Positions 33,469-38,219 of a stretch of 64,000 nucleotides of DNA are shown here, in pieces (position 1 is the first letter of the stretch; the number at the start of each line of letters is the position of its first letter). The position numbers and the translations under genes are program-made. The DNA lies in assembly GCF_013315695.1 (NCBI RefSeq), contig NZ_CP054353.1, one strand, 5' to 3'. A model generated the notes under the pieces. That model was not told where the DNA came from, did no database searches, and saw nothing but the letters and a program-made list of their open reading frames with translations. This DNA comes from Escherichia coli (lineage in GTDB: Bacteria > Pseudomonadota > Gammaproteobacteria > Enterobacterales > Enterobacteriaceae).

Positions 33469-34761
33469 TTACCTGTTTTCCCATAATCTCAGCATCGCTT
33501 TGTGCTCTTCCTTAAGCACAATCCGCGAGCGTCTGGCTCGAATATAACTAATCGCTTCATCAACGGTTTTACAATGTCCGTAACATAACAGCCATGCCGC
33601 CACCACCAGTGCACTGCGCGATAATCCCAACGCGCAATGGACCAGAACGCCGCCTTGCTCTTCGCGTAATGTTTCCAGCATCGCCACGGCCTGTCGTAGC
33701 TCCCCCTCTTCCGGAACCACCAGATCCAGCATCGGTACACAAAAATAGAGTTGATCTTTTGTGGCTCGTCCGCGAGGGAATTCAAAGGTGACGTCCAGAA
33801 CCGCATTCTGTGCCGGAATATGTTGTGGAAACGCCCCTAAATAAACACCAGCCGTAATTTTGCTCACCGGCTCAAGGCGAAGACAAAACCAACGCATAGA
33901 CAGCCACATCCCGATGCGCCAGGGCAATGTCAGCCAGTAAACGGCGGGCGGAAGTTTCCCCTGACTATCTTTCCCTGTTGTTATCGCGCCAAGCCCACCG
34001 TACCCACGGCCAATAATGAGTAGCGATAATACTGGCCAACATAACCAGACTGACCACCATAACTGAAGCATTATCATTAGCTCCATCAACACAATGCACG
34101 AGCACGCGCCTACGACATATGGCAGTGCTATTTTGATTCGACGTTGATCAGGTTTCTGATAATTCCAACGACGGTCGACGGGCACCATCCAGTCAATTAA
34201 CATACCTACCGCCAGCCCCGTGATGACATCAATAAAATGATGCTGCCAGGTCGTCAGCGTCGAAATGGCGATGAGTAAAAACCATCCGCCACAGACTTTA
34301 CGCAACCTCACAGCCAGATGCTGACGAAAGTGACGCCAAAGTAGCCAGCAGAGAATAATATGCAGCGAAGGAGACTGGTTATAAGGCAGATCAAACAGTT
34401 CAAGTTGCGAAAATAACCATCCTGTCACCCCACTCACTTCAGGACGGATAAAACTAAACTTCAGCGGATAGAGAAAAAAACCGCAGCAGGCCATTACCGT
34501 TGCCAGAATAAGCCGGTGGACCAGACGGCGCTGCTCAAATGTCGAGCTACAAACGAACAGCGAAAATCCATATAAAAGATCCAGACTCCAGTAAGGAACA
34601 ATAGTCCAGGGAAGAAAAGGGATCGCCGTTTCCCAACCGAATACCTGACTGGGGATATCATGGTTGTTAAGATGCTGAGTCGCGGTGAACTGATTAAGAA
34701 ATCCATATGTAAAGAAGAAAAACGGGGCCAGCAACAATAACCAGCCAGCTCCTTGTAGCAA
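33469..34761 (-). CDS. ynbD: Membrane phosphatase-like protein YnbD (start uncertain; track ORF extends to 34860)
   Basis: N-terminal membrane domain plus C-terminal dual-specificity-phosphatase-like motif [10 protein letters not shown]; TTG start at 34761 gives K-12-like 430 aa. Confidence 0.7.
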
Positions 34762-34774
34762 TACGTTCCGGCGT

Positions 34775-36532
34775 TCAGTTATCACGACGCACCGCCATCG
34801 AAACCGTAAAAATGCCCCACTCATCAATCCGTTGTGTGCATTTATCAAATCCGGCATCATGCACGAGCGAATCCATCTCTCCTTGAGAACGCACGCGCAT
34901 TACCCACGGTTTACCATCTTTATGACTGGTTAACACCCCGGCAATCAGCTCCAGTTGTGGGTGCCACGGCTGCCCGGTGTAGAGGAGAATGCCACCCGGT
35001 TCGATGGCATTGGCAAGACCTGCGAGTGAGTTTTTTACCTGCTCATTTTCGGGGAAAAGCTCATACAGGCCAGAGACAATCGCCAGCGTAGGCCGCGGAG
35101 TTAACGCGCTGAGTTCCTCCGGGTTAAACGCATCGCCCTGTTCAAAACGCACCCGCCCAGACATTCCCCGTTGAGCAATCATCTCTTGCCCCTGTGCAAC
35201 ATTTAACTCGCTGTAATCACGTAACAAAATATCGCTTACGGCAGGCTCGTTTGCCAGCGCATCCAGTACATAGCGCCCATGCCCTGCGGCAATGTCAACC
35301 ACGCGGACGGCTAAACCTTTGGCGTGGAGATCGGCAACGGCTTGTTTAATCAGTATTTGTAAATGGGTTTTGCGCTGGCGAATACCGCGCCAGCCAACAC
35401 TGTTCAGGTAGATTTTGTCGATTAAGCGCCCGAATGCGTTACTACCTTGCGGTTGATTTTGATAGACATAATCCAGCGAACTGCCTGAATCAAAGCCGGT
35501 GCTCATTCCGAGATGCAGGCCCGCAGAGTGCGTCCCGAACAATTTCATCGCTTTACGCATAAAGCGATACGCCAAATCAACCGGCGATAATGGCACGGGT
35601 CCACCTGAAAGGAGCCGCCAGCGATCCGCTGATGGTCCAGTGCGGTCTTCATGCTGATAATCAAATTTTTGTGACTTGTTAGCATATAAACGACTAATAA
35701 AGCTTTGCATTTTTTCAAATGCCTGCGCCCTGTTCTCTTCACCCAACGTGTCGTGATAAAAGCCTGGCAGCAGATGCAGCTCTTTCAGAGGGCTACGTAA
35801 TCTCTGATAAAAATCAATCTGCGGTTGACGATGCACCACATAGTCATCGCCTGATATCAGAAGTTGCGTGGGGAGCGTAATCGCCGCCGCATCGCTAACA
35901 ATACGTTCAGACGTTTTATAAAGATCGAGCAAGATATTAACGGCAATCGCCCGTGTGATCAGCGGATCATTATTGAAACTCGCCACCCGTTGCCGATCGT
36001 GGGTCAAATAGCGTCCTTTCACATAGGAATTAATAAAAAACAGACCACGCAGACGATGCCATAACGCCAGCGCAGGACGTGCCAGCGGCACATACAATTT
36101 AACCTTAAAGGCCGGAGAAGCCAGCACCAGCCCGCGAATAGCAGGCGCATAATCATGAACCCATGTAGCAACCATCACTGCGCCGACGCTTTGCGCGATC
36201 ACAACTACCTCCTCCAGTCCGACCTGGCTGTCGCTGGCAGCAAAACGGACAAATTCATCGACATCCTGCACTGAACGCGCAAGAGATGGGCTATAACCAC
36301 GCGGCCCCGAAGTTTGTCCATGCCCTCGGGCATCCCATGCATAAAAAGCAGTATCTGGCATCGCCAGTTCATCAACGATATGTTGTAGACGACCAGAATG
36401 TTCATGACCGCGATGAAATAAGACGATGACCTTTTTCGCCCCTGGCTGTAAAGTGGGCCAGTGCCGATAAAACAACGCTGTATTATCACTGGTGGTAAAA
36501 AAATGTTCCCCAGGGATGCGTGAATTTTCCAT
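34775..36532 (-). CDS. ynbC: Two-domain protein: alpha/beta hydrolase plus methyltransferase-like (585 aa)
   Basis: ORF and synteny in ynbABCD cluster. Confidence 0.8.
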
Positions 36533-36547
36533 TTTCTCTATTTTCCT

Positions 36548-37444
36548 TCAGTAACAGCAGTAGCGAATAAAATAAAAAAATACCGGAGCGGTGAAAATTA
36601 ATGAGTCAATCCTGTCAAGGAGTCCGCCATGTCCTGGTAATAGTTTTCCACTATCTTTAACACCAATATCTCGTTTGATGGCTGACATCACTACATCGCC
36701 GCAAAAACCACTTACCCCAATCAGTAACCCCGCCAATAATGCCTGCCAGGCGTTTAAGGGTGTCAATAACGGTCCAATGATCATCGACGCTATCATGGTG
36801 GTGATTACGCCGCCCATCAGACCTTCCAGTGTTTTTCCCGGGCTGACTTTGGGGACCACTTTTCTTCTGCCGCAGGATTTTCCCCATAAATACTGTGCAA
36901 TATCGTTTGACTCGGTTAATGCCAAAAGAAATAACACCAGTAACGCCCCGCCCTGGATATTTGTGGTTGGCAACATTAATAACCAGGCGGCATGACTCAA
37001 GGCGAAAACGGTCATTATCCAGCCACAAAAAATGGCACTCACGGTATGCAGAAAACCAGAGGGGTCACCCACTAAAACTCGCCAGGTGGCTAATATCAGA
37101 AACCCAGCCAAAGGTATAAATAACAGAAACAGCTCAAAGCAATTAAAACCGATAAGCAAATAGTTAAGAGGAATACCCCAATATAACCAACGCGGAAAAT
37201 GTACGGATATAAGCGTACAATATTCTTTCAATGCCAGAAAACTTATCAGCGCAAAAAACGTCAACGTCATCCAGCGTGGACCTGAAATCACCATTGAAAA
37301 ACAAATGACGATGCCCCACCAGGTACGAATACGTAATGTAACCTCACCCCCTTTTCCCTCCGGTAACCGCCATATCAGAAAACGGTTTATCAGCGTTGCT
37401 AAAATTAACAACGCGAAAAGTGTTGCCAGAGATTTTTCCAGCAT
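36548..37444 (-). CDS. ynbB: CDP-diglyceride synthetase (CdsA)-family membrane protein (298 aa)
   Basis: Multi-pass membrane ORF; synteny. Confidence 0.8.
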   Translation of the reverse strand: MLEKSLATLFALLILATLINRFLIWRLPEGKGGEVTLRIRTWWGIVICFSMVISGPRWMTLTFFALISFLALKEYCTLISVHFPRWLYWGIPLNYLLIGFNCFELFLLFIPLAGFLILATWRVLVGDPSGFLHTVSAIFCGWIMTVFALSHAAWLLMLPTTNIQGGALLVLFLLALTESNDIAQYLWGKSCGRRKVVPKVSPGKTLEGLMGGVITTMIASMIIGPLLTPLNAWQALLAGLLIGVSGFCGDVVMSAIKRDIGVKDSGKLLPGHGGLLDRIDSLIFTAPVFFYFIRYCCY

Positions 37445-38049
37445 TATCTTTCAGCACTCATCAGGAGCACACTTCGACAACGATTAATCGCAGTCCAGAG
37501 AAGCAAAATTGAAGCAATGCTCCATAAAAGATTATTCCATTGCATCCACTGTGGATAAATGGCAACAGCCAGCCCCCACAACCCAAATATTAACGCACGA
37601 TCGCTTTTGCCGAATGGACCGGCATAACTGCGAATACCGTTAATCGTCTGCGCGAGTAAACCGCAAAACTCAGTTAATATGGTGCAAAATAACATGAGTA
37701 TTACGAGTGATGCGTTACTTTCCGGTAAAAATAAAAACGGTAAATAAAGCGCAATATCGGAAATAACATCGCCAGTTTCATTCAAAATCGCCCCAAGACG
37801 TGTTTGCTGATTGCACTCACGCGCCATCATGCCATCCAGCGCATTGAGCGCCATACGGATAAAAAGCACGATAGGCAATAGCAAAAAGAGGATGGGTTGT
37901 GCCACCAACATCAACAGCAATCCGGTAAGAAGAGAAAGCGCCAGTGCAGCAAGAGTGATGTGATTCGCTGTAACATGGTGCTTATTAAGCCAAAACATCG
38001 TCGGCCTTAACAGCGACTGAAAGAGCGGTTTTATCTGGTAGAGCGTCAT
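37444..38049 (-). CDS. ynbA: CDP-alcohol phosphatidyltransferase-family membrane protein (201 aa)
   Basis: Start set at MTLYQIKPLF; motif DGMMARE... consistent with CDP-alcohol phosphatidyltransferase. Confidence 0.8.
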   Translation of the reverse strand: MTLYQIKPLFQSLLRPTMFWLNKHHVTANHITLAALALSLLTGLLLMLVAQPILFLLLPIVLFIRMALNALDGMMARECNQQTRLGAILNETGDVISDIALYLPFLFLPESNASLVILMLFCTILTEFCGLLAQTINGIRSYAGPFGKSDRALIFGLWGLAVAIYPQWMQWNNLLWSIASILLLWTAINRCRSVLLMSAER

Positions 38050-38219
38050 TATCAATCCTTGATAATTCGGTTTGCGCTATGGTGCATCAATTCCCCTGAC
38101 GGAGATATCGCAACACGCCGCTTCATTAAAAATTCAGAATATATCAAGGTATTGGGGACTCACCGTCAGGAATGATTATCCCCAATAAATCAAGTGGTTA
38201 AAAATTATTACGCTGTTAT

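Follow-up and report, generated by a model that had tools for sequence, protein, structure and literature searches.

The ynbABCD genes of Escherichia coli, studied here on the minus strand (33469-38049) of a 64-kb stretch of E. coli DNA (the window), are a single operon, and we read them, with a little less than even confidence, as the reduced E. coli form of a proteobacterial lipid module that serves as a self-contained glycerophospholipid side branch: a phosphatidyl-X-phosphate would be made, dephosphorylated and modified, and its head group would then be moved or cleaved (X here is an alcohol, distinct from the gene X introduced below). The product of the module would most likely be a minor membrane phospholipid that is made and then re-used. 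An earlier reading, made from the sequence alone (the sequence-only reading), had also pictured a phospholipid head-group pathway, and this is supported by gene neighbourhood and by active-site conservation.

In the proposed pathway, phosphatidic acid would be made by a PlsC-like acyltransferase (step 1), for which the housekeeping PlsC would substitute in E. coli, and converted by YnbB into CDP-diacylglycerol (CDP-DAG; step 2), a step that has been shown in the literature. YnbA would then move the phosphatidyl group onto a phosphorylated alcohol, X-P, giving phosphatidyl-X-phosphate (step 3), from which the cytoplasmic dual-specificity phosphatase (DSP) domain of YnbD would strip the phosphate (step 4). 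The soluble YnbC might methylate and/or deacylate the lipid (step 5, the least certain). The lipid would then flip across the membrane, where the periplasm-facing, sphingomyelin/IPC-synthase-like domain of YnbD would either transfer its phospho-head group to some acceptor in the envelope or cleave that group off, releasing diacylglycerol (step 6). On this reading, the contribution of YnbB to the glycolipid MPIase (see later) would be a spill-over of CDP-DAG formation and not the conserved purpose of the module.

Profile (HMM) searches confirmed all four domain assignments of the sequence-only reading, and none of the proteins fell into an unrelated family. YnbA, described as CDP-alcohol phosphatidyltransferase-like, matches Pfam PF01066 (CDP-OH_P_transf; 37.4 bits against a cut-off of 22, profile positions 3-148 of 152), and YnbB, described as CDP-diglyceride synthetase-like, matches PF01148 (CTP_transf_1; 237 bits). 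The hydrolase/methyltransferase fusion YnbC matches Hydrolase_4 (PF12146; 231 bits) in its N-terminal half and Methyltransf_20 (PF12147; 506 bits, profile positions 1-309 of 309) in its C-terminal half. YnbD had been called membrane phosphatase-like, which its DSPc match (PF00782; 94 bits) upholds, but the description was incomplete: the protein is a PAP2 enzyme of the sphingomyelin/inositol phosphorylceramide (IPC) synthase type fused to a DSP, with a PAP2_3 match that stays below threshold (21 bits against a cut-off of 27). No curated NCBIfam equivalog takes in any of the four proteins.

Conservation of the Gene Cluster

Loci were gathered by scanning one genome per species with a profile made from a 10-sequence YnbC alignment, and those of 80 non-E. 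coli species were compared. They cover Enterobacterales, Neisseriales, Burkholderiales, Rhodocyclales, the Pseudomonas fluorescens and P. syringae groups, Bradyrhizobium, and a metagenome-assembled genome of Acetobacteraceae. Homologues of ynbA, ynbC and ynbD are adjacent and on one strand in every one of the 80 loci (some few of the copies being degraded, or truncated where a contig ends), so that the core of the operon is indeed conserved, as had been claimed, when judged by co-occurrence. A-C-D is thus the invariant core of a six-gene module consisting of ynbA, ynbB, a plsC-like gene, ynbC, ynbD and gene X. Chance co-location of unrelated genes was considered as an explanation, and is rejected by the synteny across 80 species.

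Most of the loci also carry ynbB together with a gene for a PF01553 (PlsC/AGPAT-type) acyltransferase of about 210 aa, in which the HX4D and FPEGTRG motifs are intact. The gene order is A-B-PlsC-C-D in Citrobacter, Hafnia, Snodgrassella and Chitiniphilus, and A-C-D-X-PlsC-B in Pseudomonas, Variovorax, Cupriavidus, Accumulibacter and Bradyrhizobium. Gene X lies directly 3' of ynbD in more than 60 of the non-E. coli loci and encodes a predicted membrane protein of 135-150 aa with no match in Pfam or NCBIfam (examples in Table 1); there are two sequence subfamilies, and a Xenorhabdus copy bridges them. Proteus, Providencia and Xenorhabdus have A-C-D only (plus X), without ynbB, and on one metagenomic contig YnbA and YnbC are naturally fused into one protein, with YnbD, a PlsC-like protein and YnbB encoded after it. 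Since the acyltransferase and X are missing from E. coli, ynbABCD represents a reduced form of the six-gene module.

Two ynb-like clusters occur in Citrobacter sp. Cu233. One (L004) is intact, and the other (L013) is 66% identical to it and apparently degraded, since its YnbA is short, its YnbD split and its YnbB missing; the pair points to duplication or horizontal transfer of the ynb module.

Within E. coli, the ynb locus matches 4765 of 5426 complete genomes, with at least 80% coverage in 4280 of them, and is therefore widespread but not universal. All four genes are under purifying selection, with dN/dS values against a K-12-like strain of 0.06 (ynbA), 0.11 (ynbB), 0.17 (ynbC) and 0.24 (ynbD). 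The possibility that they are pseudogenes was rejected, given intact open reading frames (ORFs), conserved catalytic residues and low dN/dS. The ynbA promoter of K-12 is activated by BglJ-RcsB, which at other loci is known to lift repression by H-NS (PMC3950696). The locus of the present strain is an unusually divergent one: a match of at least 99% was found in just 5 of the 5426 complete genomes, most of the others being at 96-97%.

Active Sites of the Four Proteins

Judged by profile scores, YnbA is a relative of phosphatidylinositol phosphate (PIP) synthase that lies outside that family. Its closest NCBIfam models both score below cut-off (archaetidylinositol phosphate synthase, 75.5 bits against 180; PIP synthase, 49.5 against 170; the equivalogs used for PIP and archaetidylinositol phosphate synthase were NF045883 and NF040950), and the PgsA model gives 29 bits against a cut-off of 109. 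The best relative of solved structure is the PIP synthase of Mycobacterium tuberculosis (6h53), at 4e-8 with a single sequence and 5e-12 with a 46-sequence profile. The canonical signature of the superfamily, D1-x2-D2-G-x2-A-R-x8-G-x3-D3-x3-D4, provides four Asp for a dinuclear metal site, and the corresponding YnbA motif reads N69-x2-D72-G-x2-A-R ... G86-x3-N90-E91-x2-D94, followed by R140-x-Y-x-G-P-x-G-K-S-D-R151 and R190. YnbA thus departs from the four-Asp signature at D1 (N69) and D3 (N90), with D2 (D72) and D4 (D94) kept. The Asn/Asn motif with the following Glu (N90-E91) is found in 77 of 79 YnbA orthologues, the remaining two being degraded copies, and it recurs in one distant cluster (L093) and in the YnbA-YnbC fusion protein; because it is shared so widely, we regard it as a family trait of YnbA and not as decay. 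In the M. tuberculosis enzyme D68, D71, D89 and D93 hold the dinuclear Mg site, inositol phosphate is bound through its phosphate by R155 and R195, and R94 is conserved in enzymes that use inositol phosphate (PMC6506517). YnbA N69, D72, N90 and D94 align with the four Asp residues, and the invariant R151 and R190 with R155 and R195; the whole loop from R140 to R151 is invariant in the family. YnbA would then be a transferase with an altered metal site that, we infer, still takes a phosphorylated (anionic) acceptor.

YnbD appears to hold two phosphoryl-transfer sites on opposite faces of the inner membrane. In a confident AlphaFold model based on 55 orthologues (pLDDT 93.6, pTM 0.90), eight transmembrane helices precede a globular domain that starts near residue 296. 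The membrane domain has the PAP2 fold and all three PAP2 motifs, C1 (RP), C2 (PSxH) and C3 (HxxxD), in the form R-P107, P131-S-L-H134 and S167...H174-H175-x2-D178, and these are invariant among orthologues; its closest structures are SMSr and the Aur1 IPC synthase. The C-terminal domain has the DSP fold, an HCx5R(S/T) P-loop (H-C376-A-L-G-L-S-R382-S) and a general-acid Asp (D346), with D346, C376 and R382 invariant among orthologues, and PTPMT1 is among its top five fold matches. The loops between the helices alternate in net charge (alignment-wide average, with helices taken from the AlphaFold model), and from the positive loops the three PAP2 motifs are predicted to face the periplasm, with the linker and the DSP domain on the cytoplasmic side. 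YnbD is the fourth PAP2 protein of E. coli, and it fails to complement mutants lacking undecaprenyl pyrophosphate (C55-PP) or phosphatidylglycerol phosphate (PGP) phosphatase (PMC7413402).

The hydrolase domain of YnbC has monoacylglycerol lipases (MGL) as its closest relatives. Besides the profile match it has an MGL fold with cap and a Ser-Asp-His triad, S115 (within A-Q-S-V-G), D230 and H260, that is invariant or nearly so among orthologues. In the methyltransferase half, the S-adenosylmethionine (SAM)-binding sequence D413-I-A-A-G417-H-G (a D-x-A-x-G-x-G motif) is conserved, and a profile search of PDB sequences returned generic class I enzymes only (methyltransferase type 12, 6.5e-8; cyclopropane-fatty-acyl-phospholipid (CFA) synthase, 3.5e-6), the matches spanning just the Rossmann core. 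A full-text literature search found no paper on the Methyltransf_20 (PF12147) family, of which Ralstonia PhcB, a 3-OH fatty acid methyl ester synthase, is a candidate member. A transposon insertion in ynbC, possibly polar, has been reported to cause accumulation of polyphosphate (PMC2435150).

Among 1.8 billion representative proteins, the YnbC fusion occurs in about 400 clusters at E < 1e-30. One distant homologue lies with a CdsA-like gene, a PAP2_3 protein, a patatin and a short-chain dehydrogenase/reductase (SDR), and another has CdsA-like and PlsC-like neighbours only. A third cluster (L093:5452-9719) encodes YnbA-like (Asn/Asn), YnbB-like and YnbC-like proteins and then an extra Methyltransf_2 O-methyltransferase, without YnbD, and hints at multiple methylations of the product. 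In two further clusters (L087 and L091, Table 1) the YnbC homologue keeps company with genes of fatty-acid synthase (FAS) type, and may there join acyl release with methylation. The YnbC family is tied to lipids because its distant members sit with CdsA-like, PlsC-like, PAP2_3, patatin or FAS-type genes.

YnbB is best described as a paralogue of CdsA, since the CdsA equivalog (NF008635) scores it at 110 bits, far under the cut-off of 385. The catalytic C-terminal halves of the two proteins are homologous, whereas YnbB's N-terminal half is unrelated to that of CdsA. YnbB makes CDP-DAG in vitro; its overproduction raises the level of MPIase, a glycolipid whose first intermediate is N-acetylglucosaminyl-pyrophosphoryl-diacylglycerol (GlcNAc-PP-DAG), and under CdsA depletion restores MPIase but not bulk phospholipid, and ynbB is induced by cold along with cdsA (PMC6362211, PMC7018664, PMC11413397, PMC11448367). 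Both enzymes make CDP-DAG and can support MPIase synthesis, while YnbB cannot replace CdsA for bulk phospholipid (PMC6362211, PMC7018664), and deletion of ynbB alone gives no MPIase defect at 37 °C (PMC6362211). The conserved partners of YnbB in many bacteria are YnbA, YnbC and YnbD, whereas reports of MPIase in the literature searched come from E. coli only. That no product had been assigned to the operon, as the sequence-only reading stated, does not hold for YnbB, given its CDP-DAG product and the link to MPIase; it stands for YnbA, YnbC and YnbD in the literature searched, where MPIase data were found for YnbB (PMC6362211) and none for ynbA, ynbC or ynbD, and where no study was found that addressed the function of YnbA, the enzymology of YnbC or the operon taken as a whole. 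One E. coli record (P0001) is a single protein of 889 aa with CTP_transf_1, hydrolase and methyltransferase domains, a YnbB-YnbC read-through of the 15-nt gap between the genes that could exist in nature or have arisen as an error of sequencing or annotation.

Weighing the Alternatives

Several observations weigh against the reading of ynbABCD as a head-group side branch. No lipid product has been observed, and the cluster has no gene that would make X-P. In YnbA, the position of R94 is Val or Ile throughout the family; as R151 and R190 are kept and R94 is not, a phosphorylated acceptor fits, though not necessarily inositol phosphate. Asn at two of the four metal-site positions suggests that the chemistry of YnbA may differ from standard phosphatidyl transfer. 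The DSP fold of YnbD is no nearer to lipid phosphatases than to protein DUSPs, and since YnbD does not rescue PGP-phosphatase-deficient cells (PMC7413402), glycerol is disfavoured as X, provided that the assay expressed active YnbD. The distant YnbC homologues of L087 and L091, at 33-34% identity, stand at the end of clusters of type II fatty-acid or aryl-polyene-like kind, not of head-group clusters, and YnbC may act either on head groups or on acyl chains. The published results on YnbB tie it to MPIase (PMC6362211, PMC7018664). E. coli is without two of the module genes, a tblastn search of the window having found no remnants of the PlsC-like gene or of gene X, and 661 of the 5426 complete E. 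coli genomes (12%) have no match to the locus.

One alternative is that the operon is dedicated to MPIase. YnbA (or YnbB) would couple CDP-DAG to GlcNAc-1-phosphate to give GlcNAc-PP-DAG, which YnbC and YnbD would trim or regulate. PAP2 enzymes commonly act on lipid pyrophosphates, the overlap between the ynbA stop and the ynbB start suggests coupled expression, and an Asn/Asn site, being less negative, could suit an anionic phosphate nucleophile. The effects of YnbB overproduction on MPIase, with and without CdsA depletion, and its cold induction with cdsA argue for the same role (PMC6362211, PMC7018664, PMC11413397), whereas MPIase is unchanged in the ynbB deletion at 37 °C and it is CdsA and YnbB themselves that have been credited with the synthesis of compound I (PMC6362211). 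Pseudomonas, Variovorax, Cupriavidus and Bradyrhizobium moreover have the module, and MPIase figures, in the literature searched, in work on E. coli alone; the cluster contains no glycosyltransferase or sugar-nucleotide genes; Proteus, Providencia and Xenorhabdus maintain A-C-D without ynbB; and MPIase is reported to be essential, yet the 661 genomes mentioned above lack a match to the locus. We consider a dedicated MPIase operon improbable.

A role in acyl-chain chemistry, in which the PlsC-like enzyme, YnbB and YnbA build a lipid pool from which YnbC frees and methylates an acyl group, would agree with the kinship of the YnbC hydrolase to monoacylglycerol lipases, with the appearance of CFA synthase among the solved-structure matches of the methyltransferase profile, with the FAS- and aryl-polyene-like clusters (KS, KR, FabA, ApeI/ApeP-like) that the distant homologues end, with the patatin phospholipase added in one variant cluster, and with the dedicated acyltransferase of the module. 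It gives no reason for the invariant partnership of YnbC with a PIP-synthase-like transferase and a two-domain phosphatase/phosphotransferase; the hits of the methyltransferase profile are generic and confined to the Rossmann core, and no fatty-acid methyl ester tied to these genes was found in the literature searched. This role seems quite unlikely; if it were true, the methyl ester or methyl-branched chain could be a signal or a membrane modifier. It is also conceivable, but distinctly improbable, that the E. coli operon is a silenced and decaying remnant without a product of its own, in which YnbB alone keeps a backup CDP-DAG synthase activity. The loss of the PlsC-like gene and gene X from E. 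coli, the requirement of BglJ-RcsB for activation of the ynbA promoter (PMC3950696), the lack of a growth or envelope phenotype of deletions (PMC6362211, PMC7413402), and a locus that about 21% of complete E. coli genomes lack or carry only in part would all fit such a remnant. The four ORFs are nevertheless intact, the catalytic residues are all retained and dN/dS is 0.06-0.24; reduced A-C-D forms persist in Proteus, Providencia and Xenorhabdus, and phosphatidic acid can come from the housekeeping PlsC.

The preferred reading, a side branch that makes and re-uses a head-group lipid, has a bolder form that we regard as rather doubtful, in which the module makes a new class of proteobacterial lipid: the Asn/Asn transferase would build a lipid with a phosphorylated, then methylated head group, and YnbD, through its sphingomyelin-synthase-like domain on the periplasmic side, would donate that head group to an envelope molecule. 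If this is true, bacteria would have a counterpart of sphingomyelin/IPC synthase chemistry that does not depend on ceramide, and even E. coli would have it in a reduced form.

Relation to Known Pathways

The bacterial phosphatidylinositol (PI) route (M. tuberculosis PgsA1; Bacteroides BT_1523, BT_1525 and BT_1522) has the same three-step logic and the same fold families as Ynb, namely a CDP-DAG-dependent transferase with two acceptor-phosphate arginines (PMC6506517), a dedicated phosphatase and an Aur1/SMS-like PAP2 enzyme that can hand the phospho-head group on to another lipid (PMC9246714). The Bacteroides cluster, made up of a PIP synthase (BT_1523), a PIP phosphatase (BT_1525) and an Aur1-like IPC synthase (BT_1522), is a direct precedent for steps 3, 4 and 6 of the proposed pathway (PMC9246714). 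In the absence of BT_1525, PIP-DAG builds up. Ynb differs from the PI route in that YnbA scores far under the PIP-synthase cut-offs, has Asn at D1 and D3 and is without an equivalent of R94; the Ynb phosphatase is a DSP fold fused to PAP2 and not PgpA-like; and the cluster is without an inositol-phosphate synthase gene. The module also goes beyond the PI route in having a CdsA paralogue of its own, together with an acyltransferase, a hydrolase fused to a methyltransferase and a small membrane protein.

Compared with the sphingomyelin synthase/SMSr/Aur1 family, the membrane domain of YnbD has 10-14% sequence identity and is fused to a cytoplasmic phosphatase; ceramide, which these enzymes usually take as acceptor, is not known to be made by E. 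coli. In phosphatidylglycerol (PG) synthesis PTPMT1 or PgpA dephosphorylates PGP, and the PgsA-PTPMT1 pair is a precedent for a lipid phosphatase of DSP fold. Ynb departs from the PG route (PgsA with PgpA/B/C, or mitochondrial PTPMT1) in that YnbA is weakly PgsA-like and YnbD fails in pgpA pgpB pgpC complementation (PMC7413402).

The locus has long been annotated and YnbB has been studied, hence it is not new as a locus; the pathway would be CDP-DAG-dependent head-group synthesis via a phosphorylated intermediate, with unusual features, and nothing in the results overturns expectations. What is new here is the A-C-D synteny, the six-gene module and its reduction in E. coli, the Asn/Asn motif of YnbA, the two-faced PAP2-DSP architecture of YnbD and the MGL-like YnbC fusion. 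The phospholipid pathways of E. coli are regarded as fully mapped, yet with ynb the species has two CDP-DAG synthases, two classes of phosphatidyltransferase and four PAP2 enzymes, and a hydrolase-methyltransferase besides. The module is carried by many Proteobacteria associated with plants, soil or hosts. Naming its lipid would fill a gap in membrane biochemistry; it would also tell whether the link between YnbB and MPIase is a native role or a side activity, and would bear on sphingomyelin-synthase-type head-group transfer in the Gram-negative periplasm. The comparison offers as handles the Asn/Asn motif, a trap mutation of C376 and the complete six-gene clusters of other species, such as those of Citrobacter (L004) and Pseudomonas (L030), which could be expressed in another host.

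Layout of the Locus

The coordinates of the ynb genes, their domains and the related features of other loci are collected in Table 1. In a 7-kb stretch around the ynb genes the window is 100% identical to the E. coli blood isolate AF3 (NZ_OZ547117.1), where the annotated order is azoR, ynbD, ynbC, ynbB, ynbA. The four intact ORFs are on the same strand, with a 1-nt overlap of the stop and start codons of ynbA and ynbB and gaps of 15 nt (ynbB-ynbC) and 13 nt (ynbC-ynbD), which agrees with the co-directional, tightly packed genes described by the sequence-only reading. Promoter-like or terminator-like sites inside the operon are not commoner than in shuffled sequence, and 53 nt separate ynbD from the convergent azoR. 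The span given earlier, 33469-38055, was right at its left end; at the right end, 38055 is an in-frame TTG of the same ORF, two codons 5' of the annotated ynbA ATG at 38049.

Table 1. Coordinates of the ynb genes and domains in the window, and of related features in other loci (prefix L).
Feature	Coordinates	Strand	Description
ynbA	38049-37444	(-)	201 aa; PIP-synthase-like CDP-alcohol phosphatidyltransferase
ynbB	37444-36548	(-)	298 aa; CdsA paralogue
ynbC	36532-34775	(-)	585 aa; hydrolase-methyltransferase
ynbC N-terminal domain, aa 1-285	35678..36532	(-)	monoacylglycerol-lipase-like serine hydrolase
ynbC C-terminal domain, aa 286-585 + stop codon	34775..35677	(-)	class I SAM-dependent methyltransferase, Methyltransf_20
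ynbD	34761-33469	(-)	430 aa as annotated
ynbD N-terminal membrane domain, aa 1-295	33877..34761	(-)	PAP2 fold, sphingomyelin/IPC-synthase type; 8 predicted transmembrane helices
ynbD C-terminal domain, aa 296-430 + stop codon	33469..33876	(-)	dual-specificity phosphatase
ynbA upstream region (promoter)	38050..38220	(-)	intact between ynbA and truncated ydbD pseudogene
Protein X, examples	L004:13010-13432; L030:13082-13537; L002:11026-11433		predicted small membrane protein
Distant YnbC clusters	L087:3649-9779; L091:614-9725		KS, KR, MaoC/FabA dehydratases, ApeI/ApeP-like genes, small ORF

The start of ynbD is uncertain. RefSeq places it at the TTG at 34761 in this strain (430 aa), and in another strain 8 codons upstream (438 aa), where the gene overlaps ynbC; the longest ORF begins with an ATG at 34860, 86 nt inside ynbC, and would encode 463 aa.

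Next to the ynb locus, the region 38220-39366 of the window contains an IS1 element with inverted repeats at 38597-38620 and 39343-39366. The element truncates ydbD, of which a C-terminal pseudogene (about 38220-38597) is left, and sits immediately beside ydbL-ynbE-ydbH. Upstream of ynbA, a K-12-like strain has a full-length ydbD, pdxI and an autotransporter pseudogene; in the present strain an IS1-associated deletion has therefore taken out the stretch in between, with the ynbA promoter region kept.

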